Source: Candidatus Versatilivorator sp.
GTDB lineage: Bacteria; Acidobacteriota; Terriglobia; Versatilivoradales; Versatilivoraceae
Direction of reading: 5' to 3'
Length of the DNA stretch: 64,000 nt
Assembly: GCA_965262635.1 (NCBI GenBank)
Contig: OZ253547.1
Coordinates: 3,445,514 to 3,509,513 of the forward strand
Numbering within the stretch: the first letter of the stretch is position 1; every line of letters starts with the position of its first letter. The notes beneath the pieces were generated by a model. That model had not been told where the DNA came from. It ran no database searches and saw only the letters and a list, made by a program, of their open reading frames with translations. Position numbers and translations under genes: made by a program. Shown here piece after piece: positions 42,993 through 55,647 of the stretch.

Positions 42993-43199
42993 ATGATTGT
43001 CGATCCCGGCAAGATCCCGAACGTGCGGGCGAAATCCCCGCAGCACGTTCTACGGCTGGTACCGACGATACAAGAACAGGGATGTGACGGGACTGGCCGA
43101 CTGGCATCCGGCGCCGGCGTACCCTGGAACCGGATTCCCGACACGGTTCGTCAGCGCGTCGTCGACCCAGCGGATGAGGTGGGAACGAGAGCGCCATGA
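42993..43199 (+). pseudogene. fragment of an IS481/IS3-type transposase N-terminus (frameshifted)
   Basis: Two overlapping frames read ...RSTFYGWYRRYKNRDVTGLAD... and ...NRIPDTVRQRVVD..., resembling the HTH/OrfA region of IS481-like transposases. No intact ORF. Confidence 0.45.
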
Positions 43200-46100
43200 C
43201 CGTTCACTCTAAGGGCCGCGAGCTCTTCATCGTCGACAACAGTGTCTCCGGCTGGACCGGGCTCCGGTACTTGGAGGAGTGGTCCAGCATCGCGAAGGCG
43301 TTCGACATCGCGACCGGATACTTCGAGATCGGCGCTCTGCTCACCCTAGAAGGCAAGTGGCAGGAGCTCGACAAGATCCGGATCCTGATGGGGGCGGAGA
43401 CTACCCATCGGACTCGGAAGGCCATTCTCGAAGCGGTCCGGGCGCAAGCGCTCGACAGGCTCGATGAAAGCATGGAGGAGGACAAAGAGCCGAACCCCTT
43501 CCTGCACGGAGTCCATGCGATCCTCGAAGCGCTCCGCTCCGGGCAGATCGAATGCCGTGTCTACGACAAGGACAAATTCCACGCCAAGGCCTACATCACC
43601 CACGCAAGGCTCGAGGTCGTGGGCGCCCAGGGGCTGGTGGGCTCCAGCAACTTCACGCGCCCGGGTCTCACGAAGAACATCGAACTGAACGTCCAGATCC
43701 AGAGTGCGCGCGAGGTCGCGCAGCTCCAGGAGTGGTTCGAGACGCATTGGAACGAAGCGAGGGAGGTCACCGAGGCCGTCATTGAGACGATCTCGCGCCA
43801 TACGCACCTGTATTCGCCGTTCGACGTCTACGCGAAGGCCCTGCAGCAGTTCTTCCGGGGGCACGATCTGAGCGCGACTGAGTGGGACGAGACACGGTCG
43901 CGCATGTTCCCGCACCTCGATCGCTATCAGAAGGAGGCGTACTGGGCGCTCTTGAAGATCGCCCGGCAGCACGGCGGTGCGTTCCTCTGTGATGGCGTGG
44001 GTCTTGGGAAGACCTTCGTCGGTCTGATGCTGATCGAGCGGCTCATCCTTCACGAGGGCAAGCGTGTCGCGCTGTTCGCACCGAAGGCGACCAAGGAGGG
44101 CGTATGGGAGCCTCACCTGCGTCGGTGGCTTCCGCACATCGGCGGCGTCGGCGGTGGCGCGGACTTCAGCAACCTGGCCGTCTTCAGCCACACTGACCTG
44201 GGACGCAAGGGCGACTACCCGGAGCGTTTCCAGCGCATCGCGGAACTGGCCGACATCGTCGTCATCGACGAAGCGCACCACTTCCGCAATCCGGGTCGCC
44301 GGGGTGACCCGGACAGGGGAATCGAACCGTCGCGCTACTACCGCCTGTTCGAGTTGCTCGACAACGCGGAACGCCCCAAGACAGTGATCATGCTGACCGC
44401 CACCCCCATCAACAACCGCCTGAGCGACTTCCGTCACATGACCGAGCTCTTCACCCGTTGCGACGAGGCCTACTTCGCGCGCACGATCGGCGTGAACAAC
44501 CTGCGGGCGCACTTCAACCAGATGGAAAAGACGCTTCGCAGCCGTGTGGGGCAGGACGAGGCGGATGCCGCGGAGCACATGACCGAAGCCCAGCAGATCC
44601 TCTTCACCGACGCATTCTTCCGCCAGCTCGTCGTCCAGCGGAGCCGCGATTACGCCCGCGAGAGCCAGATTCGGGAGTACGGCAAAGCAGCCGCCTTTCC
44701 CGAGCGGAGGGACCCTCAGGTAGCGGCGTACTCGATCCGCAAGACCTACGGGGGGATGCTCAAGCTGATCGAGAAGGCCTTCGCGAAGCAGAGCCCCCTC
44801 TTCACGCTCGCGATGTACTACCCCCTGCATTGGTACAGGGGGCCGGACAAGGACATCGACCCGTTCGAGGAGAACCGCCAGAGACAGGTGGTCGGCCTCA
44901 TCCGGACCAACTTCCTCAAGCGCTTCGAGAGCTCCGTCGCCGCCTTCGAACTCTCCTGCGACCGCCTCCTCCAGAAACTGCTCGCCTTCCTTGAGGTTCA
45001 CAGCGAGAGCGACGCCGAGAAGAAGCGCCTCGAGCGCTGGAAGGCGCAGAACGCCGACGTCCTGGGCTACGCGGTCCAGCGCCAGCGCGAGCTCTGGGGC
45101 GAAGAAGGCAAGGAAGCGGACGACGAAGACATCGTCCCCCAGGAAATGCTCGACGCGGTCGAGCGCCTCGAGCGGGCCGAGTACGACGTAGAGGAGATGA
45201 TAGCCGAGACCTTCCTCGACCTCGACCAGATCGTGCAGTTCCTGGACGAGGCCCGGAAGTTCGAGCCGAAGCACGACGATAAGCTCAAGAAGCTCATCCG
45301 CCTACTCAATTCAAAGGCGCTGGCCGACCAGAAGATCCTGATCTTCACAGAGTTCGCCGACACGGCCCGCTACCTCAAGCGTCACCTGGACGAGGCCGGT
45401 ATCGAGGGTGTCGAGCAGGTGGACAGTGCCACGAAGAAGAACCGTTCAGACGTCATCCAGCGCTTCGCGCCCTACTACAACGGCCTCTCGTCCCCGGAAC
45501 TCGCCGAGCAGGGCCGCGAGGAGATCCGCGTCCTGATCTCCACCGATGTCCTCTCCGAGGGTCTCAACCTTCAGGACGCCTCGCGGATGACCAACTATGA
45601 CATCCACTGGAACCCGGTCCGCCTCATGCAGCGCATCGGCCGGGTGGACCGGCGCATGAATCCCGCAATCGAGAAGCGGCTCGTCGCCGACCATCCCGAG
45701 GCGGCCGCCTCGCGCGACACGGTCTGGTTCTGGAACTTTCTCCCGCCCGAGGAGCTGAACGAGATCCTCTCGCTCTACAGGAAGGTCACGCAGAAGGCGC
45801 TTCTGATCTCCAAGACCCTCGGGATCGAGGGCAAGAAGCTCCTCACCCCGGAGGACGATTACGAGGCGCTGAAGGAGTTCCACCACGCCTACGAGGGCAC
45901 GCGCACGGCCATGGAGGACATGCACCTCGAGTACCAGGCGCTGCTCCAAGCCGACCCGGAGCTGGAGGCGCGCCTCGCTCGCTTCCCCGGTGCGATCTTC
46001 AGCGGCCGCAAGCGCCCGGCAAGGGGCGTACGCGGTGTCTTCTTCTGCTACGCGCTCCCCGCCCTCGACAAGGAGAAGAACGAGTTCACCGAGGAGGCCG

Positions 46101-46345
46101 GCACCACCCGCTGGTACCTCTACGACCTCGACCGCGAGACCATCATCGAGGAGCCGGGCGAGATCGTCGCGAGCGTCCGCTCGAAGCCCGAGACGCCCCG
46201 GCACTGCACCACGGAGGAGAAGACGCTCCTCGACATCCGCAAGCGGATCGACAAGCACATCAAGAACAGTTACCTGAAGCGCGTGGACGCACCCGTCGGC
46301 GTCAAGCCGCGGCTGCACAGCTGGATGGAACTGAACGAGGGCTGA
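43196..46345 (+). CDS. PLD-family nuclease domain fused to SNF2-family helicase/translocase
   Basis: 1049 aa. N-terminus has [10 protein letters not shown]...GSSNFT (HxK...GSxN PLD motif). SNF2 motifs: GLGKTF (Walker A), [11 protein letters not shown] (DEAH box), [17 protein letters not shown]...QRIGRVDR (helicase C). Confidence 0.85.
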
Positions 46346-46349
46346 ACCG

Positions 46350-49300
46350 ATGCCGACCGACCACCGCGAACGCCTCGCCCGCATCCGCCGCTTCGACCAA
46401 CTCGTGGCATACCTGCGCGACGAGCTGGGCTGGCCGATCGACTCGGACGACTTTGAGGAGTTGACCTTCGAGTACACCCCGGAGGAGCTCGGGATCGACG
46501 CGAAGAACGCGGCCAAGATCCAGGAGATCAAGCGCCTGCGCCCGCTCGTGCCGGGCCAGCCCTGGGGCATCTTCTTCGTCAAGTTCGAGCCGAAACGGCT
46601 GCCCGTGGTGGCGCTGCGCCGCATCCTCAGCCAGGTGGCGCTCAAAAAGCGCGCCACGGCCAACAAGTCCGAGCGCCAGGCTTGGGCCGCCGACGACCTG
46701 CTCTTCGTCTCCAACTACGGTGAGGGCGAGGAGCGACGCATCGCCTTCGCGCACTTCTCGAAGCCCCGGGACAGCCACGACCTGCCCACCCTCAAGGTAC
46801 TCGGCTGGGACAACCTCGACACGCCGCTCCACCTCGACGCCGTCGCCCGCGAGCTGAGCGCGCACCTCGCCTGGCCCGACGACGAGGACGACCCCGACGC
46901 CTGGCGCGAGCGCTGGCGTGCTGCCTTTACACTGCGCCACCGCGAGGTCATCACGACCTCGAAGGAGCTCTCCGAGCGCCTGGCCGAGCTGGCCCGCTCG
47001 ATCCGCGACCGTATCCAGACGGCGCTCGCCATCGAGACCCAGGCCGGCCCGCTCACCCATCTCATGAAGGCGTTCCAGACCGCACTCGTCCACGACCTGG
47101 ACGAGGCCGGCTTCGCCGACATGTATGCCCAGACCATCGCCTACGGCCTGCTCTCGGCCCGCATCACCGACCCCACGCGGCGAACGGCCGACGACCTCGT
47201 CGCCCACGTGCGGACGAACCCATTCCTAAAGGAGCTGTTGGAGACCTTCCGCCACGTGGGTGGGCGCCGCGGCAAGGCCGGCGGTCCAGGCATCGACTTC
47301 GACGAGCTGGGCGTCTCCGAGGTGGTGGAGATGCTCGACCAGGCCAACATGGAGGCGGTGGTCCACGACTTCGGCGACCGGAACCCCCAGGAAGACCCGG
47401 TCATTCACTTCTACGAGCACTTCCTTGCCGCCTACGACAAGAAGCAGAAGGTGAGCCGGGGCGTCTTTTACACCCCGCGCCCGGTGGTCTCCTACATCGT
47501 GCGCTCGGTGGACCAGCTCTTGCGTAGCGAGTTCGGCCTCACCGACGGCCTCGCTGACAACACCACCTGGGGCGAGATGGCGAAGCGCCACAAGGAACTG
47601 AAGATCCCGGAAGGCACCTCGCCGGCGCAGGCCTTCGTCCAGATCCTCGACCCGGCCACCGGCACGGGCACCTTCCTCGTCGAGGTGATCGACCTCATCC
47701 ACAAGACGATGGTCGAGGAGTGGAAAGCCCAGGGCCACGGCGACAAAAAGATCGATGCGCTCTGGAACGACTACGTCCCCAAGCACCTCCTGCCGCGCCT
47801 GCACGGCTACGAGTTGCTAATGGCGCCTTACGCCATCGCGCACCTCAAGATCGGCCTCAAGCTCTTCGAGACCGGCTACCGGTTCGAGAGCGACGAGCGA
47901 GCGCAGGTGTACCTGACGAATGCGCTCGAGCCGCCGGTCGACGGGCAGCTCACCCTCGACTTCATGCCTGCGCTGGCGCATGAGGCTGAAGCGGTCAACA
48001 AGATCAAACGGAAGCAGCGGTTCACGGTGGTGATTGGGAATCCGCCCTACTCAGGCCTTTCCTCGAACATGGGTCCCTGGATCGACGGTCTTCTCAAGGG
48101 CCGCCTGCCAGATGGAAAGGCAACCTCCAGCTACTACCACGTAAACGGCAAGCCTCTCGGTGAGCGCAAGGTGTGGCTTCAGGACGACTACGTGAAGTTC
48201 ATTCGCCTCTCGCAGTGGCTCCTCGACGGCACGGGTGCGGGCGTTCACGGCTACATCACCAACCACGGCTACCTCGACAACCCCACGTTTCGAGGAATGC
48301 GCTGGTCGCTCATGGAGTCCTTCCGCCGGATCCGTGTGCTCGACCTTCACGGGAACCTCAAGAAGAAGGAGGCTCCGCCGGGGGGCAGCCGCGATGTCAA
48401 CGTGTTCGACATCCAGCAGGGCGTGGCTATCGGGCTTTTCACAAAGTCTGCCGCCGCCAGATCTGTCCACCACGCAGATCTGTGGGGCGAACGGGAAAGC
48501 AAGTACAGATGGCTACTGGAGCATGGGTCCTTAACCACCGAATGGGCGCAACTGGAACCAGCTCCACCGTTCTATCTGTTCGAGCCCTTCGACGACGCAG
48601 GAACGGACGCCTACTACGGCTGGCCTGCAATCAGCGAGGTGATGGCCGTCAACGTGACCGGCATCGTCACGGCGCGCGATGATTTCGTCATCGATTTCGA
48701 CCGGGAGGCCCTCCGAGGCCGGATCGCCGACCTGCGCTCGAAGTCACTGTCCGATGATGCAATCCGGAAGAAATACTTCGTCGGGAAGGGTTCGAAGAAG
48801 TATCCGCCCGGGGACTCGCGCGGATGGAAGCTGCCTGCGGCCCGGCGGAAGATCCGTGAAGATGATCAGTGGGATGAGCGGTACGCGCCTGTGCTGTATC
48901 GCCCGTTAGACGTCCGGGAGATGTACTACGTGCCGTGGATGGTGGACTGGCCTCGGACCGAAGCCATGCCACACATGCTCGCGGGGGAGAATGTCGCCCT
49001 GATGGCATGTAGGCAAGCAATCGGTAACGGCTGGAAACACTTACTGGCCACGCGATTGATTACCGATGACTCGATGGTTTCCAATCGAACACGCGAGCGA
49101 GGTTATCTTTTCCCCGTTTACCTCTATCCGGGGGTTGGAAGTGCAGATACATCACTGTTCAGCCGCTGGGCCGAGGGCAAGGACGGCCGCACGCCAAATC
49201 TGGACTCGGGGTTCGTCGAGCAGATTGCAGCCGCCACCGAACTGCGATTCGTCAGCGACGGCCGCGGCGATCTCTGGAAGACCTTCGGCCCCGAGGACGT

Positions 49301-50369
49301 CTTCGCCTACATCTACATGGTGTTCCACAGCCCCGGCTACCGCGGCCGCTACGAGGCCCATCTCAAGCTTGACTTCCCCCGCGTGCCGGTGCCCGGAAGT
49401 GTCGACCTCGTCCGAAAGCTGGCGGAGGCCGGCCATGACCTGCTGGCCCTCCACCTGCTCGAATCCCCGAAGCTCGGTAAGCCCATCACCGCCTACACCG
49501 GCCCCAGGAACCCAGAAGTCGGCCGTGTCGGCTGGTCGGACGGCACGGTCTGGCTCGACGCCGGCAAGACCAACGCCCGCGCGGGCCACCGTGCGACGAA
49601 ACGCGGCACCATCGGGTTCCAAGGCATACCCGAGGAAGTCTGGGACTTCCAAATCGGCGGCTACCAAGTTTGCCACAAGTGGCTCAAGGATCGGAAGGGA
49701 CGCACGCTCTCCGACGAGGACATCGCCCACTACCAGAAAATCGTCGTCGCCCTGAACGAGACCATCCGCGTCATGGCCGAAATTGACGAGGTCATCGAAG
49801 CCCACGGCGGCTGGCCCGCCGCATTCCATACGGCGTCGGAGGCGGATGCCGTATCGGAGTGGACGGCGAAGGTGGTGGCGTTCCGGCCACGCACGGTCGA
49901 GCCCGCGCCCGAGGACCGCTACGTCACCTGCGTGCCGCTCGTCGCGCTAAGAGCAGCAGCCGGCGACTTTGGCGATCCGCAGCATATCGAAGACGACGAT
50001 TTCGAGTGGGTCGCTGTCCAGTCCCGCCATCGTCTGCGCAAGGGCATGTTCGTCGCCCAGGTCGTCGGCAAGTCCATGGAACCCGCAGTCGCCGACGGCG
50101 CTTGGTGCCTATTTCGCGCTCCGGTCGAGGGCACACGCCAGAGCAAGACCGTTCTCGTCCAGCTCCGCGACGCCACCGACCCGGAGACCGGTCAGCGCTA
50201 CACGGTCAAGCGCTACAAGAGCCTAAAGGCGACAGAGGGCGACTCCTGGCGCCACGAGAAGATCACCCTTGAGCCCGTCAACCCGGACTTCGAGCCGATA
50301 GTGCTCACCGGTGTGGACGAAGGCGAGCTGCAGGTAATCGCGGAACTAGTCGACGTGTTGGGGGGCTGA
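46350..50369 (+). CDS. gamma-class N6-adenine DNA methyltransferase (BREX PglX / type IIG-like giant MTase) with C-terminal LexA-type S24 peptidase domain
   Basis: 1339 aa; FYTPRPVV (motif X), [11 protein letters not shown] (motif I), VIGNPPYSG (motif IV). The last ~149 aa (from nt 49920) align with the LexA C-terminal domain: [21 protein letters not shown] (Ser) and TVKRYK (Lys). Confidence 0.85.
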
Positions 50370-50372
50370 GGT

Positions 50373-53300
50373 ATGGTTCCGGAACAGCTCGAACCGCACC
50401 TGGAGCTGCTCCGCGAGGAGTACGTCCTCGTTCAGGCCTGGAAGAAGACCGCGTCCTACATCCGCTACCACAACTGGTTCTCCGACACGCTCGCCCTCGA
50501 CCGCGCGGCCGTGAACCTGCCGGCGTTTATCGGCGAAATCCGTGAACGTCTGCGGTCTTCGGAGAGATGGCAGAACGATCCTCTGCGAATCGTGCCAGCA
50601 CCCAAGAGCCAGCGCTGGAGAGCGCGTGAAGGCGTGTGGGAGCCCGTCGAGAAAAGGGCCGCCTCAGTACGACTTCGACCGCTCGCACACGTCAGTCTGG
50701 CCGACCAGGTGGTAGCGACGGCGCTGATGCTTTGTCTCGCCGACCGTGTCGAAACGCTGCAGGGGGATCCGCGGCGGCCGCTACGTGATCAAGAGTCGCG
50801 ACGGCAGGTGGTCTCCTACGGGAACCGACTGTTCTGCGACGCGATGGGAGGCGAACTGCGCCATCGGTGGGGATCCGCCAAGCTCTACCGTGCCTACTAC
50901 CAGGACTACCGCGCGTTCCTCTCCCGTCCGGAAGTTGCGGCCGAGTCGATTCTCGCAGCCCACGGAAAGCGGGTGTACGTCCTCCATGCGGACCTTCGAC
51001 AATTCTATGACCGCGTGCGCCCAGATCTGCTTGCCGAAGCGATCGACCGGGTCCGCCGCGACGGCGATGATCCGGCGTTCTTCTCTTTGGTGGCGTCCGT
51101 GCTCGATTGGGGTTGGCATCAGCGTGACGAAAGAGACGTCCGAATCTACGCAGAGCAGGCGGAGCTGGAGGACTTCACGCGGGTGGCACTGCCACAGGGA
51201 CTCGTCGCCTCCGGCTTCTTCGCGAACGTCGTGCTTCTTTCGTTCGACGAGGCGCTGCGCGTGGCGATCGGGACCGAGATCGCCCCCGGGATCCTGCTGG
51301 CGGATTCGTGCCGATACGTCGACGACTTACGGATCCTGGTTGCGGTTGCCCCGAACACGGATGGCTCCTCGAATGACCTTGAGAAGACCGTCGCAAGATG
51401 GCTAAATCAGGTACTGGAAGAGAATGCGACCGGCCTAGCCCTGGCCCCCGAGAAGACCCAGGTCGCAGCGCTCGGAGGCGACGAACGACCGCTGGTGCGG
51501 CAGAGCGCGAAGATGAACCGCATCCAGTCGGCGGTGTCGGGGGGATTCGACGGGCTCGGGGGCGAGGAGATCCTCGATGCCATCCAGGGCCTGATGCGCG
51601 CGCAGGAAGCCCTGAGCGTGGGCGACGACAGCGGCTGGCGATATTCCCCGGTCCCGGATGTGCGGGACGAGACGGTCGCCAGATTCGGCGCTGCCCGATA
51701 TCGAACCACGTTCCGTTCCATCAGGCCACTGCTCCAAGACAACGACACACCGGACGAGTCTGAGGTTGGAAGAGGCGATACCCCGCCCGGCGGGCGACTG
51801 CGCGTGGCGCGTACGCGGCGCGAGCTGGACGAGGATGCGAGGGCGTTTGCGCTCGGACTGCTTCAACGGTGGATCGACGACCCCTCGAACGTTCGATTGC
51901 TCCGGATCGGCCTCGATCTCTGGCCGGATGTCGAGTTGTTGCGGGAAGTTCTTTCACTGCTCCGCCCATTCACGGAAACGGGAGGTCGGCGAAAAGCGCC
52001 GAGGCGAGTCGCCTGGTACTGCCTCGCTGAAGTCTTGCGCGCGGGAGCCACGGAGACGGGCCTCGTGGCAGACACCGAATCGCTTCCATCAGAGATCGAC
52101 CTTGAATCCTACCGAGAGGAGCTTGGCAGGGAGGCCGCTCGCCTAGTGGGTTTGCCCGGGCCGACGATTCCCTGGTATCTCCGACAGCAGGCGCTGTTGT
52201 TTCTAGCAGCATGCGATCCCGCCGGAGCGCCCGTTACCCGCACGGGAACCGGATCGGAGACCCGGCACTACCGGGAGCTGATTCGATTTCTGCGCGGTGA
52301 AGGAGAACGCCTCAGGAGTTCGGATTTCGCGACCCTCGCGGTTCTCGCCAGACGTGCGTTCGTAGATCGAGTGCGGGCCGTTGAGTTGGCGCGGCCCGGC
52401 CTCAATCCGTCGCGGAAGCGGCAGCTTGCTCAGAGGGACCCGTCGTTTCTTCTTGAGCTCATCGACACCGAGACGGACGCTCTCCTCGTCGACGACCTTC
52501 CGGCGCGCATCCGTGAGGACTTCTGCCGGGCTTCGGAGAGTCCTGACGGAGACCACGACACGCTGGCCATGGCGGTCCTGAACACGCACCCGAGCGGTTC
52601 TCTTCGCAACGAGCTCTCTCTTCTGCGCTTCGCGATGGCTTTTCTCAGCCAGTGGGAGCAGCAGGAGTTTCCGCCCGAGGTGATCACGCCAGGGCACGTC
52701 ACGCTGATGCTCGGCGAGGACCAGGGGATCGCTGACGTAGAAAGCCTACGGATCCTGGGGAGTCGGGCCGACGCATCGGGCTCCCTGTACGAGGTGGCCG
52801 CGTGGTGCCAAGCCGGTGATCGGTGGCGCTTCCAGCTCGGTTTCCTGTTGCGGTTCATCTTGTCGGGGCAGCCGGACTTCACGCGCCCTGTCTGCAGGAC
52901 GGGCTGGAGAGAGACTGAGTCTTGCTATCGGCCTGCCGAGAGCCACTGGTACCAGCGGTTGTACGGCCTTTACAACGGGCAGCCGGCCTTCGGAGACGAC
53001 TGGCTTCCGATCACGGATTGGGTAGAAGGATTCCTCCTGGCCCTCCTGCGCTGGCCAGGATGCCTTGCTCCGGAAGGGTTCAGTTGGGTCGAGCAGGGCA
53101 TCGAAGAGGCGAGGACGCAGATTGGCCAGAGGATCGCTGATCTCGAGCAGCGCCGCGGTAGCGCTACCCGTGCACTGATCCTGCCGCTGCTGGCCAAACG
53201 ACCGACTGCGACGAACACGAAGAGGCCGTTACGTGCCTGCGTGGTACAGACAGCGATCCCGGCGGCCGACGACTTCCAGCACACAGATTTGGCACTCAAC

Positions 53301-53537
53301 GATTCCGCAATTCGGCGAAGACACCGCAATCACCTGTCGGCAGCGCTCGCGGCCGTGGAACGCATGTTGGCGTTGCGGGAGACGCACAAGGGGAGCGTAG
53401 GGCGGCTCGATTGGCTGATTCTGCCCGAGCTTGCCGTCCATCCGAATGACGTTCGTACTCATCTGGTCCCTTTCGCACGGGCTCACAGGGCAATGATTCT
53501 CACCGGGCTGACCTACGAAGAGATTCTAGTGTACTGA
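50373..53537 (+). CDS. reverse transcriptase domain protein, 5' part of an RT-nitrilase fusion (DRT1/UG1-like), truncated by IS630 insertion
   Basis: RT motifs: VLHADLRQFYDRVRPDLL (motif 2), ALPQGLVASGFFANVVLLSFD (motif 4), CRYVDDLRIL (YxDD) and LAPEKTQV (motif 6). C-terminal LRACVVQTAIP...WLILPELA begins a CN-hydrolase domain. The stop codon is supplied by the IS terminus. Confidence 0.85.
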   Translation: MVPEQLEPHLELLREEYVLVQAWKKTASYIRYHNWFSDTLALDRAAVNLPAFIGEIRERLRSSERWQNDPLRIVPAPKSQRWRAREGVWEPVEKRAASVRLRPLAHVSLADQVVATALMLCLADRVETLQGDPRRPLRDQESRRQVVSYGNRLFCDAMGGELRHRWGSAKLYRAYYQDYRAFLSRPEVAAESILAAHGKRVYVLHADLRQFYDRVRPDLLAEAIDRVRRDGDDPAFFSLVASVLDWGWHQRDERDVRIYAEQAELEDFTRVALPQGLVASGFFANVVLLSFDEALRVAIGTEIAPGILLADSCRYVDDLRILVAVAPNTDGSSNDLEKTVARWLNQVLEENATGLALAPEKTQVAALGGDERPLVRQSAKMNRIQSAVSGGFDGLGGEEILDAIQGLMRAQEALSVGDDSGWRYSPVPDVRDETVARFGAARYRTTFRSIRPLLQDNDTPDESEVGRGDTPPGGRLRVARTRRELDEDARAFALGLLQRWIDDPSNVRLLRIGLDLWPDVELLREVLSLLRPFTETGGRRKAPRRVAWYCLAEVLRAGATETGLVADTESLPSEIDLESYREELGREAARLVGLPGPTIPWYLRQQALLFLAACDPAGAPVTRTGTGSETRHYRELIRFLRGEGERLRSSDFATLAVLARRAFVDRVRAVELARPGLNPSRKRQLAQRDPSFLLELIDTETDALLVDDLPARIREDFCRASESPDGDHDTLAMAVLNTHPSGSLRNELSLLRFAMAFLSQWEQQEFPPEVITPGHVTLMLGEDQGIADVESLRILGSRADASGSLYEVAAWCQAGDRWRFQLGFLLRFILSGQPDFTRPVCRTGWRETESCYRPAESHWYQRLYGLYNGQPAFGDDWLPITDWVEGFLLALLRWPGCLAPEGFSWVEQGIEEARTQIGQRIADLEQRRGSATRALILPLLAKRPTATNTKRPLRACVVQTAIPAADDFQHTDLALNDSAIRRRHRNHLSAALAAVERMLALRETHKGSVGRLDWLILPELAVHPNDVRTHLVPFARAHRAMILTGLTYEEILVY

Positions 53538-54690
53538 CATCTAATTAATATTTAATAATGATGATTCGATGCTATAGTATGGGGCATGGCCCGTCCGATT
53601 ACAGTCCTCAAGCTCACAGCCGGTGAACGTCGAGAGTTACAGCGCCGGGTTAGTTCCAGCACGAGTTCGAAGCGCGATAGCTTGCGCGCCGAGATTGTCC
53701 TGCTCCGGAGCGAAGGGGTCAAGGTCGAGGAAGTGGCTGAACGATTGAACGTCAGCTTGCCGTGCGTCAGCAAGTGGTCGAGGCGCTTCCAGCACGCCGG
53801 CCTGGACGGCTTGAACGACAAAGCGGGACGGGGACGCAAACCGTGGGTGCCCATGGAGACAGTCGAACAAATCATCGTGAAAGTGACCCAGCCGCCACCG
53901 GGACGGACGCGATGGAGTTTGCGCAGCATGGCGAAGGAAGTCGGCGTCTCGCGCCACACGGTCCACACGATCTGGAAGCGTAACGACTTGAAGCCTCATC
54001 GCACGCGTACATTCAAGCTGTCGAAAGATCCGAAGTTCGAGCAGAAATTCTGGGATGTCATCGGTCTCTACCTCCATCCTCCCGAGAAAGCGCTCGTGCT
54101 CTGCTGTGACGAGAAAACCCAGTGTCAGGCTCTGGAACGCAGTCAGCCGGGATTGCCCTTAGGAATCGGCCACATTCGCACCCGAACTCATGACTACAAG
54201 CGACACGGCACCATCACCTTGTTTGCGGCTCTCAACTACCTGGACGGCAAGCTGATCTCCCGGACTGAACAGCGGCACACCCATGTGGAGTGGTTGCGTT
54301 TCCTCAAGCAGATCGAACGGGAAACACCCAAGTCGCTGGCCATTCACCTCATTGTCGACAACTACAGTACTCATAAGCATGAACGTGTCCGCCGTTGGGT
54401 CGACCGTCATCCACGCATCCACTACCACTTCACGCCGACCGGGAGCTCCTGGCTGAATCTTGTCGAACGCTTCTTCGCCGATCTCACCAGCGATGTGATT
54501 CGCGACGGCAGCTTTCGCAGCGTCCCCGAACTGGTTCGCGCCATCGAATCCTATCTGGCCGACCGCAACGCGGATCCTCAACGCTACACATGGCATACAA
54601 AAGGCGAAGCAATCCTCGCCAAGATTCAACGAGCCAAAGAGGCTCTGGCCAACGTTAATTAATTAAACCCATTTCAATGTCAGGACACTA
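53529..54690 (+). mobile_element. IS630-family insertion sequence (1162 bp) with imperfect terminal inverted repeats GTGTACTGACAT / ATGTCAGGACAC and TA target duplication (53527-28 / 54689-90)
   Basis: TIRs match 11/12 positions. Excising 53529-54690 restores one continuous reading frame across the nitrilase domain. Confidence 0.85.
53586..54662 (+). CDS. IS630-family (Tc1/mariner-like) DDE transposase
   Basis: 358 aa; N-terminal HTH, DDE triad region ...DNYSTHKHE... and IS630-typical C-terminus. Confidence 0.9.
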   Translation: MARPITVLKLTAGERRELQRRVSSSTSSKRDSLRAEIVLLRSEGVKVEEVAERLNVSLPCVSKWSRRFQHAGLDGLNDKAGRGRKPWVPMETVEQIIVKVTQPPPGRTRWSLRSMAKEVGVSRHTVHTIWKRNDLKPHRTRTFKLSKDPKFEQKFWDVIGLYLHPPEKALVLCCDEKTQCQALERSQPGLPLGIGHIRTRTHDYKRHGTITLFAALNYLDGKLISRTEQRHTHVEWLRFLKQIERETPKSLAIHLIVDNYSTHKHERVRRWVDRHPRIHYHFTPTGSSWLNLVERFFADLTSDVIRDGSFRSVPELVRAIESYLADRNADPQRYTWHTKGEAILAKIQRAKEALANVN

Positions 54691-55287
54691 GCGGGGCAAC
54701 CGCTCGTCAACTCAGCCCTGTGGGTCATTCCGGAGTGGTCGGACGCCTACGGGCTGCAGATCAAGACTCGCCGTCAGGGGAAGGCCCATCTCGCCCCGAA
54801 TGAGCAAGCGTTCAACGGTGGTGGGGCGCACGTTCTTCAGGGATTCCGGCCCTGCCAGTGGTTGATCGGCTATCCGTGGTCGAGTGCGGACGGTACCCAG
54901 CCCGTCTGGCTCACGGCAGCGGTGTGCTACGACGCGACGGACCTCGGCTTGGCTGCGGATCTCAGGGATGTGTCGGATGTCTTGGCGATCCCGGCGCTCA
55001 ACAAGGACGTGAAGACGTTCGACCAAATGGCGTTGGCGCTGCACTACCATATGTTCCAGCTCGTGGTCGTCGCCAATAACGGCCAGTACGGCGGGAGCAA
55101 CGCATACTGGCCCCGGAGCAATGCTCACATCAGGCAGGTCTTCCACACCCACGGGCAGCCGCAGGCTTCGATCGCGTTCCTCGAAATCGACGACATCGGC
55201 GCGTTCCTGAAGCGCCACGACGTGTCGGGAGCCAACGCCGACAACTGGAAGCATCCCCCCGCAGGTCTGAACATAGCATCGCCGTGA
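54691..55287 (+). pseudogene. 3' remnant of the RT-nitrilase gene: C-terminal half of the CN-hydrolase (nitrilase) domain
   Basis: In frame with 50373..53528 once the IS is removed. Contains catalytic-Lys block RRQGKAHLAP and catalytic-Cys block AAVCYDATD. Confidence 0.75.
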
Positions 55288-55647
55288 GGTTGGTAGTGAC
55301 AGGCTTCGCCGCCGGTGCCCGCCGCCTACCGGCCCACCACGTCACCATCCGCGTTCCGTGGCACCACAGGGGCTGGGCCGGAACGGTGTGTGCGCGGCCG
55401 CTGGACAACTCGAGCTGCCTCATCCTGCCCCGCATCGACGCGGGGGGATATGCCGCTTAATGGGGGCGGCTTCGTGCAGGGACTTGATGGAGTATCGCCG
55501 GTCTGGCTGGTAGGGTTTTGCAACACCCTTGAGGCTCACGGACTATGCCCGACATCCTGCGCCGGCGCAATGAACCATGCGGGTTAACTTATCGACACGA
55601 CTTGAAACACCCCCCTCCCCGCGCGCTGAGAGGGGGATAGCGGAAAA

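Follow-up and report, generated by a model that had tools for sequence, protein, structure and literature searches.

The S24 peptidases of the MEROPS classification, represented by LexA, lambda cI and UmuD, are autopeptidases that depend upon activated RecA filaments on single-stranded DNA (ssDNA), here written RecA*. Cleavage of LexA and cI parts a DNA-binding domain from a dimerisation domain, cleavage of UmuD to UmuD' is an activating event, and the C-domains of LexA, cI and UmuD' are dimerisation domains. Type ISP restriction enzymes, such as LlaGI and LlaBIII, carry an N-terminal Mrr-type nuclease and an SF2 motor, both needed for restriction, on the same chain as a gamma-class adenine methyltransferase (MTase) followed by a specificity domain of the Type_ISP_C family. 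The latter two domains occur in this order in the Type IIL/MmeI family as well, and none of the solved Type ISP or Type IIL enzymes has an S24 tail. In E. coli, ClpXP removes HsdR in restriction alleviation, where unmodified self sites have arisen after damage or recombination (PMC4231737, PMC11109961). The current study concerns a stretch of 64,000 nucleotides (nt) from Candidatus Versatilivorator sp. (contig OZ253547.1, assembly GCA_965262635.1; hereafter, the window), in which a large adenine MTase ends in a module that we assign to the LexA/UmuD-type S24 peptidases. The same subfamily of modules recurs on a wide variety of other restriction and defence proteins.

The S24 tail and its host enzyme

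The sequence-only reading had placed a LexA-type autopeptidase domain at 49920-50369, an interval that proved to be the 3' end of a forward-strand open reading frame (ORF) encoding the MTase (Table 1), and every peptide that it quoted is found in the corresponding translation. Pfam assigns Peptidase_S24 (PF00717) to aa 1201-1333, a match that spans the model from position 5 to 115 of 116, and the tail on its own scores 29.7 bits (E 5.6e-7; gathering cut-off 23.3). A plain phmmer search of the tail against PDB sequences returned nothing meaningful, only chance matches to citrate synthase, and a profile was therefore required. Built from 59 related tails that are 43-82% identical to that of the window, the profile aligned to E. 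coli LexA 75-182 with an hhalign probability of 91.8% (E 7.4e-7), while among PDB sequences it matched only LexA C-domains and lambda cI, the sequence similarity to solved S24 proteins being weak (E 0.006).

The predicted structure leads to the same assignment. An AlphaFold2 (AF2) model of aa 1181-1339, computed from a 60-sequence alignment, has a predicted local distance difference test (pLDDT) value of 82.4 and a predicted template modelling score (pTM) of 0.78, and is weak only in the loop right after AAG. When this model was compared with the PDB using Foldseek, the best 39 matches were all C-terminal domains of LexA or lambda cI, or UmuD/UmuD' (E 2e-5 to 4e-3), with a signal peptidase ranking next at E 0.4. 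The nearest structural neighbours are accordingly RecA*-dependent autopeptidases only. Target-normalised TM-scores were mostly ~0.6-0.73 for isolated C-domain entries, and CI/LexA-type phage repressors ranked top among the viral models of BFVD. The LexA-type beta fold anticipated from the sequence was thereby recovered, and profile and model together identify the tail, far above what chance would give, as a genuine LexA-like S24 domain, a structural assignment that we consider secure. The tails also possess characteristics of their own. Compared with LexA, they contain two conserved insertions that are specific to the subfamily, DPETGxxY and K..DGxWRH, and at the C-terminus a conserved strand, VIAExVEVL, that LexA lacks.

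The resemblance to LexA, cI and UmuD extends to the positions of the catalytic Ser and Lys and to an Ala-Gly pair within the strand N-terminal to the core. In the hhalign alignment, GKS(1242)MEP pairs with GMS(119)MKD of LexA and TVK(1287)RY with TVK(156)RL, while LRAAAG(1205)DF falls on GRVAAG(85)EP with a slip of one residue, leaving AAAG opposite A83-A84-G85. Among the 59 tails, which were drawn from unrelated host proteins, P16, W40, F54, S62, M63, G81, R83, L89 and K107 are invariant, and L20, A23, A24, G25 and F27 are at least 90% conserved. The MTases that carry a tail are nearly uniform as well, with the Ser motif in 52 of 53, the Lys motif in 52 of 53 and the Ala-Gly pair in 51 of 53. 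An invariant dyad combined with an Ala-Gly that is at least 90% conserved across diverged tails is the pattern expected if both the dyad and the internal site are under selection. The earlier suggestion of an intact Ser-Lys dyad is thus upheld, and the domain is apparently active. By homology, self-cleavage would be stimulated by RecA-ssDNA-ATP filaments or by alkaline pH.

Table 1. Features of the methyltransferase locus in window coordinates
Feature	Position	Strand	Residues	Evidence or remark
PLD (HKD-type) nuclease and SNF2/ResIII helicase, 1049 aa	43196..46345	+		PLDc_2 (aa 36-185), ResIII, SNF2-rel_dom, Helicase_C (Pfam)
MTase-target recognition domain (TRD)-S24 protein, 1339 aa	46350..50369	+		Type_ISP_C, N6_Mtase, Eco57I, Peptidase_S24 (Pfam)
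Type ISP-like C-terminal specificity (target recognition) domain	48636..49778	+	aa 763-1143	PF18135, E 1.2e-77
Variable linker, specificity domain to S24	49779..49931	+	aa 1144-1194	Tail-less homologues stop inside, just past GGWPDAFQT
LexA/UmuD-type Peptidase_S24 module	49932..50366	+	aa 1195-1339	Cleavage-site strand and catalytic core; PF00717, hhalign, AF2, Foldseek
Predicted scissile bond (LRAAAG-DF)	49959..49964	+	Ala1204-Gly1205	LexA A84-G85 within one residue
Predicted nucleophile (GKSMEP)	50073..50075	+	Ser1242	Aligned to LexA S119; invariant in 59 tails (S62)
Predicted general base (YTVKRYKS)	50208..50210	+	Lys1287	Aligned to LexA K156; invariant in 59 tails (K107)
DRT type 1 (UG1 reverse transcriptase-nitrilase), 5' part	50373..53549	+	aa 1-1059	PADLOC Drt1a E 1.4e-294; RVT_1
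IS630-family transposase (DDE_3 and helix-turn-helix)	53586..54662	+		Pfam DDE_3 5.5e-21, HTH_23/32
Displaced 3' remnant of DRT1	54685..55290	+	aa 1051-1252 of intact homologue	tblastn with DRT1 of locus L004: 87% identity, E 9e-110

The protein that bears this tail begins with a region (aa 1-~337) for which no match to anything was found, continues with a gamma-class N6-adenine MTase (motif I DPATGTG from aa 434 and motif IV NPPY at aa 564) and ends with the specificity domain, the linker and the S24 module. Its best PADLOC match is REase_MTase_IIG (Type IIG REase-MTase; E 2e-202), and its only three matches among PDB sequences are the Type IIL enzyme 7lo5 (a 1029-aa adenine methyltransferase; E 4e-31), LlaBIII (4xqk) and LlaGI (5ffj). 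Unlike the LexA and cI repressors, in which an S24 domain is joined to a helix-turn-helix (HTH), here the module terminates an enzyme of ~1190 aa, and no Pfam match to a DNA-binding HTH was detected upstream of the tail, where all matches are to MTase families and Type_ISP_C. Since a DNA-binding domain is missing, the label "SOS-response transcriptional repressor LexA" that homologues bear at the Joint Genome Institute is a misnomer.

In every related locus examined, the gene directly upstream of the MTase encodes a protein with a PLD nuclease domain and an SNF2-type motor, so that the pair forms a constant core. At one locus (L037:3449-10492), the nuclease-motor, MTase-TRD and S24 tail are even encoded as one ORF of 2348 aa. 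The upstream protein has a Walker A motif (GLGKT), a DEAH box and a single HAK...GSSN motif, and it is best matched in PADLOC by "HKD+Snf2" (C3a139; E 1e-58), with DrmD-like matches as well. It is presumed to be the restriction/motor subunit of the unit. Where a chain has just one HKD-type motif, an active site is normally assembled from two paired subunits. Within the motif itself (aa 129-160, HAKAYITH...GSSN), a His replaces the Asp of the canonical HxK(x)4D. The sequence-only reading of a giant DNA methyltransferase with an S24 tail therefore requires a partial revision: an adenine MTase with such a tail is indeed present, but rather than being a lone enzyme, it is the MTase/specificity subunit of a PLD-SNF2 and MTase pair.

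The most fitting description of this unit is a Type ISP relative that is split and armed with a PLD nuclease. The order of MTase and specificity domain is shared with Type ISP and Type IIL proteins, and like Type ISP the unit combines these with a nuclease and a motor. However, its nuclease-motor is the product of a separate upstream gene instead of the N-terminal half of a single chain, and it has a PLD/HKD nuclease with an SNF2-type motor where LlaGI has an Mrr nuclease. A large adenine MTase beside an SNF2-like helicase with a PLD domain also recalls class 1 DISARM and BREX, but the matches of the MTase to PglX and DrmMI are marginal (E ~1e-4 to 1e-3). Membership of DISARM was rejected, as the core genes drmA and drmB (DUF1998) are absent and the MTase gene is flanked only by the PLD-SNF2 and DRT1 genes. 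BREX was likewise rejected, given marginal PglX matches (E 4e-4 and 7e-4) and no match to PglZ or BrxC in the three island proteins scanned. MANTIS/Gao_RL was rejected in turn, MANTIS being a four-gene system whose partner genes are absent here.

Distribution of the module

The closest MTase homologues (n = 120; 72-100% identical) fall into two length classes, one of ~1325-1369 aa that includes the tail and another of ~1150-1195 aa that stops within the linker. The tail is present in 53 of them and, as these derive from independent assemblies, the fusion is not an assembly artefact. The sequence-only reading had asked whether homologous MTases share the tail, and many evidently do. In 79 metagenome loci of the MTase family, which constitute a less biased sample, only 7 (~9%) encode it. 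The tail is thus an optional, minority add-on within this family.

Other C-terminal additions can be observed on some of the MTase relatives, either with or without S24. One is a recurrent unit of ~100 aa, found at five loci in one or two copies, which ends in "RTG..I....RS.INGL.RE.RLE..G..IRR.G" and has no Pfam match; it sits past the S24 tail (L015, 8970-9524) or on tail-less MTases. Another is a 397-aa extension of a tail-less homologue (L163:444-1634), which includes a CBS pair (Pfam E 9e-14) and has at its end an R-x4-H motif (RNRIMH) that recalls HEPN RNases.

Beyond the MTases, the module is encountered far more widely. A HMMER scan of the 159-aa tail against 1.84 billion cluster representatives yielded 1920 proteins at E<1e-3, of which 1109 fell below E 1e-10 and 187 below E 1e-30, and in nearly all of the matches listed, the similarity lies at or near the extreme C-terminus of proteins ranging from ~100 to 2000 aa. 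We examined 69 carriers without detectable similarity to the MTase body of the window, of which 68 pass the Pfam S24 model (best E 4.6e-16). Their partner domains include ResIII (9 carriers), HTH_31 (6), Schlafen-type helicase (5), the MrfA/DUF1998 zinc domain (5), HNH_4 (4), STAND NTPases (4) and RE_endonuc (3), in addition to HSDR_N, T1RH-like_C, RE_AlwI, Eco57I/MmeI MTase and more. Classical repressor-type proteins joining an HTH to S24 are found within the subfamily as well, with HTH_31 or HTH_3 in ~6 of the 69.

A second scan, using a closer tail alignment against one genome per species, identified at least 497 loci, all in metagenome-assembled genomes and spread over many phyla and groups, including Binatia, Acidobacteriota, Entotheonella, Gammaproteobacteria, Chloroflexi, Nitrospiraceae, Myxococcota and Spirochaetia. 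Among the best 80 of these loci, the host ORF is most commonly a Type I HsdR (50 of 80, comprising 43 of a main family and 7 of a second family), followed by the MTase family of the window (17) and DrmA-like DEAD/DUF1998 helicases (3), with the remaining 10 being short or unknown. Although first noticed on the MTase, the module is not specific to this enzyme: it resides most often on Type I HsdR and also on other defence proteins. It is a promiscuous add-on that is nearly always C-terminal.

A few HsdR proteins depart from this rule. In L066 (aa ~335-490), L075 and L081, a complete module with AAG, Ser and Lys is internal, being inserted between the helicase Q-motif (FHAVQVAVGETLRA) and Walker A (VWHTQGSGKS), whereas a homologue from the same HsdR family (L045) has it at the C-terminus. 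Judging from this arrangement, self-cleavage of the internal modules would sever the nuclease and Q-motif from the motor.

Between genomes assigned to different phyla (Acidobacteriota, Binatia, Nitrospiraceae, Gammaproteobacteria, Chloroflexi, Spirochaetia and others), protein identities amount to 75-92% for the PLD-SNF2 helicase, the MTase and the main HsdR-S24 family, which implies recent and frequent horizontal transfer. ORFs of ~165 aa that encode only an S24 domain of this subfamily were also found on five contigs of 40-157 kb; they could be stand-alone modules, or tails that frameshifts have separated from their hosts.

Possible modes of action

Considered as a whole, these features are best explained by a self-cleavage switch, stimulated by RecA*, that would endow the unit with built-in restriction alleviation. 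We favour this reading tentatively and place it slightly short of probable. The S24 module, tethered to the MTase/specificity subunit by a flexible linker, would bind RecA*, which would favour a cleavable conformation and allow Ser1242, with Lys1287 as the general base, to cut Ala1204-Gly1205. In contrast to LexA and cI, where cleavage separates two domains of a repressor, the cut would free the S24 protease core and leave the MTase-TRD otherwise intact. The PLD-SNF2 partner would then cease to restrict while methylation continued, following DNA damage and following recombinational repair with its newly formed unmodified self sites. A possible route is that dimerisation or docking mediated by S24 is lost. 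The cleavage, its trigger and its restriction-off outcome are all steps that we infer by analogy, the chemistry being taken from what is established for LexA, cI and UmuD.

Several considerations lead us to favour restriction alleviation. Firstly, the commonest carriers of the module are restriction/motor subunits, the class of protein that E. coli destroys via ClpXP. Secondly, the HsdR proteins with an internal insertion would be severed by cleavage, which is hard to square with activation. Thirdly, RecA* arises from ordinary host damage, precisely when the cutting of self DNA would be most dangerous. Lastly, cleavage would leave the MTase intact, and newly formed self sites could still be modified. 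The parallel to the control of EcoKI HsdR in E. coli is that restriction is under proteolytic control tied to self sites arising from damage or recombination (PMC4231737, PMC11109961). In that case, however, an external protease acts upon a translocating HsdR independently of LexA cleavage (PMC11109961), whereas the protease of the window would be built in and presumably gated by RecA*, such that the likeness would be a functional analogy only.

A number of points weigh against this reading. The most serious is that cleavage would strip the S24 core from the modification/specificity subunit and not from the nuclease subunit, and a loss of restriction would consequently require the tail to serve in assembly or dimerisation. 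Such a role is plausible by analogy, since S24 domains are dimeric and the partner has a single HKD-type motif. PLD nucleases of the BfiI/Nuc type need dimerisation, and a dimerising S24 tail could thus matter for DNA cleavage by a partner of this kind. An AF2 model of aa 1001-1339 provides no docking information, as it was derived from a shallow alignment and the pLDDT of the tail is <50, with the linker low as well. In addition, the tail is dispensable, being confined to the small minority of metagenome loci given above, and the two-gene units lacking it look intact. The insertions relative to LexA imply that the trigger could differ from RecA*, Ala-Ser or Ala-Asn replaces the Ala-Gly pair in 2 of the 53 MTases with a tail, and when the whole 1339-aa protein is scored, PF00717 attains 23.4 bits, which exceeds the cut-off of 23.3 by only 0.1 bit.

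The strongest competing explanation reverses the direction of the switch. The tail would hold the complex or an effector inactive, until ssDNA or RecA* generated by phage led to self-cleavage and defence was turned on. The sequence-only reading, which had suggested release or inactivation of the MTase upon phage-induced damage, left room for this direction with the word release. The same chemistry and conservation apply equally to such a scheme, the C-terminal placement would leave the host enzyme whole upon cleavage, much like the processing of UmuD to UmuD', and the module is also found on effector- or sensor-like proteins, such as STAND NTPases, HNH and other endonucleases, and Schlafen-type helicases. 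Nevertheless, we consider it unlikely, if still a serious contender, for three reasons: cleavage would bisect any HsdR in which the module lies between Q-motif and Walker A, MTases without a tail are common and seem complete, showing no obvious need for unlocking, and RecA* from ordinary host damage would risk self-restriction.

Two less likely rivals dispense with either RecA* or cleavage. Cleavage could occur as a constitutive or pH-dependent maturation, upon some other stimulus, for instance a phage protein, or in trans, with the tail acting as a protease upon a partner or a downstream protein. The two insertions and the VIAExVEVL strand could form a different interaction surface, and S24 relatives can cut in trans, UmuD being an example. 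We regard this as improbable, however, since a near-invariant internal Ala-Ala-Gly at the position equivalent to that of LexA argues for self-cleavage, and an association of the tail with a translationally coupled downstream defence gene failed in the 79 loci. Alternatively, the domain may be purely structural and function in dimerisation, partner docking or the binding of RecA filaments without cleaving, its catalytic residues having been kept for structural or historical reasons. The dimerising C-domains of LexA, cI and UmuD' and the lone HKD-type motif of the partner nuclease would suit such a role, but we judge it quite improbable, as an invariant Ser and Lys and an Ala-Gly conserved in at least 90% of tails, down to 43% identity, fit catalysis rather than a scaffold. 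Finally, the notion of an artefact or decaying remnant, whereby a neighbouring repressor-type gene was fused by frameshift, deletion or misassembly, could draw upon the S24-only ORFs on long contigs and on the fragmented MTase genes at several loci, but it is effectively refuted by the comparative data, in which the same in-frame architecture, its core conserved and its linker variable, recurs among close homologues and across many phyla, and we deem it very improbable.

The surrounding island and wider implications

The gene that follows the MTase in the window begins 3 nt past its stop codon and encodes a DRT1. Its homology stops at 53549 and restarts at 54685, an IS630-family element lying between, and it is ~90% identical to an intact gene of 1252-1254 aa located behind the MTase at three other loci (L004, L005 and L006). 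Split by IS630 in this manner, the window copy is probably inactive. The island as a whole (43172-55437) has 89-92% nucleotide identity to the L004 locus of a Binatia genome, except for ~1.7 kb (47932-49608), comprising the C-terminal part of the MTase and most of the specificity domain, that could not be aligned to L004 nucleotides. From the sequence, this looks like a swap of specificity domains between conserved flanks.

The gene found 3' of the MTase differs in almost every locus, as seen in ten of them. Its products include Gabija-like AAA_15 and UvrD_C proteins, a RecD-like AAA_30 helicase, DUF6161, a double HATPase protein, AAA_21, an FRG domain, HSP70-TPR and DUF3800. As the first tailed loci had gaps of 0-7 nt and four tail-less loci had gaps of 180-480 nt, it had seemed that the tail might be tied to a coupled downstream defence gene. 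This was rejected using the 79 metagenome loci, where tail-less MTases are often coupled and several tailed ones are not, indicating that variable downstream cargo is a property of the locus and not of the tail. The position 3' of the MTase gene looks like a hotspot for defence cargo, independent of the S24 tail.

Within the full-text literature searched, which included recent comparative genomics of BREX, of the YprA/DISARM/Druantia helicases and of Dnd systems, no restriction, DISARM, BREX or other defence enzyme was found to be described as carrying an S24/LexA-type domain. This is consistent with the initial impression that the fusion was undescribed. The domain and the enzyme classes are all known, and it is their recurrent fusion and its implications that appear to be new. 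Conceivably, and with somewhat less confidence than we would need to call it likely, they represent an undescribed but widespread class in which one S24 subfamily has been grafted repeatedly onto restriction and defence enzymes (Type I HsdR, Type ISP-like MTases, DrmA-like and Schlafen-type helicases, endonucleases and STAND NTPases) as a direct read-out of RecA filaments that is independent of transcription. If so, each of these enzymes would contain its own SOS sensor, by which restriction is shut down to spare damaged self DNA or, in some hosts, switched on.

To our knowledge, the mechanism by which restriction avoids self DNA after damage, recombination or the acquisition of a new specificity has been detailed for few systems, chiefly ClpXP and the HsdR of EcoKI. 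Nature has already supplied useful controls for the module described here in the form of tailed and tail-less alleles as well as C-terminal and internal insertions, and whichever direction the switch takes, the module could be used as a compact cleavage tag that responds to damage. Should it activate defence, it would constitute a new type of infection sensor. Should it prove responsive to RecA*, as our preferred reading of built-in restriction alleviation supposes, it would provide a second, portable solution to restriction autoimmunity and a direct post-translational link from the SOS signal to innate immunity.

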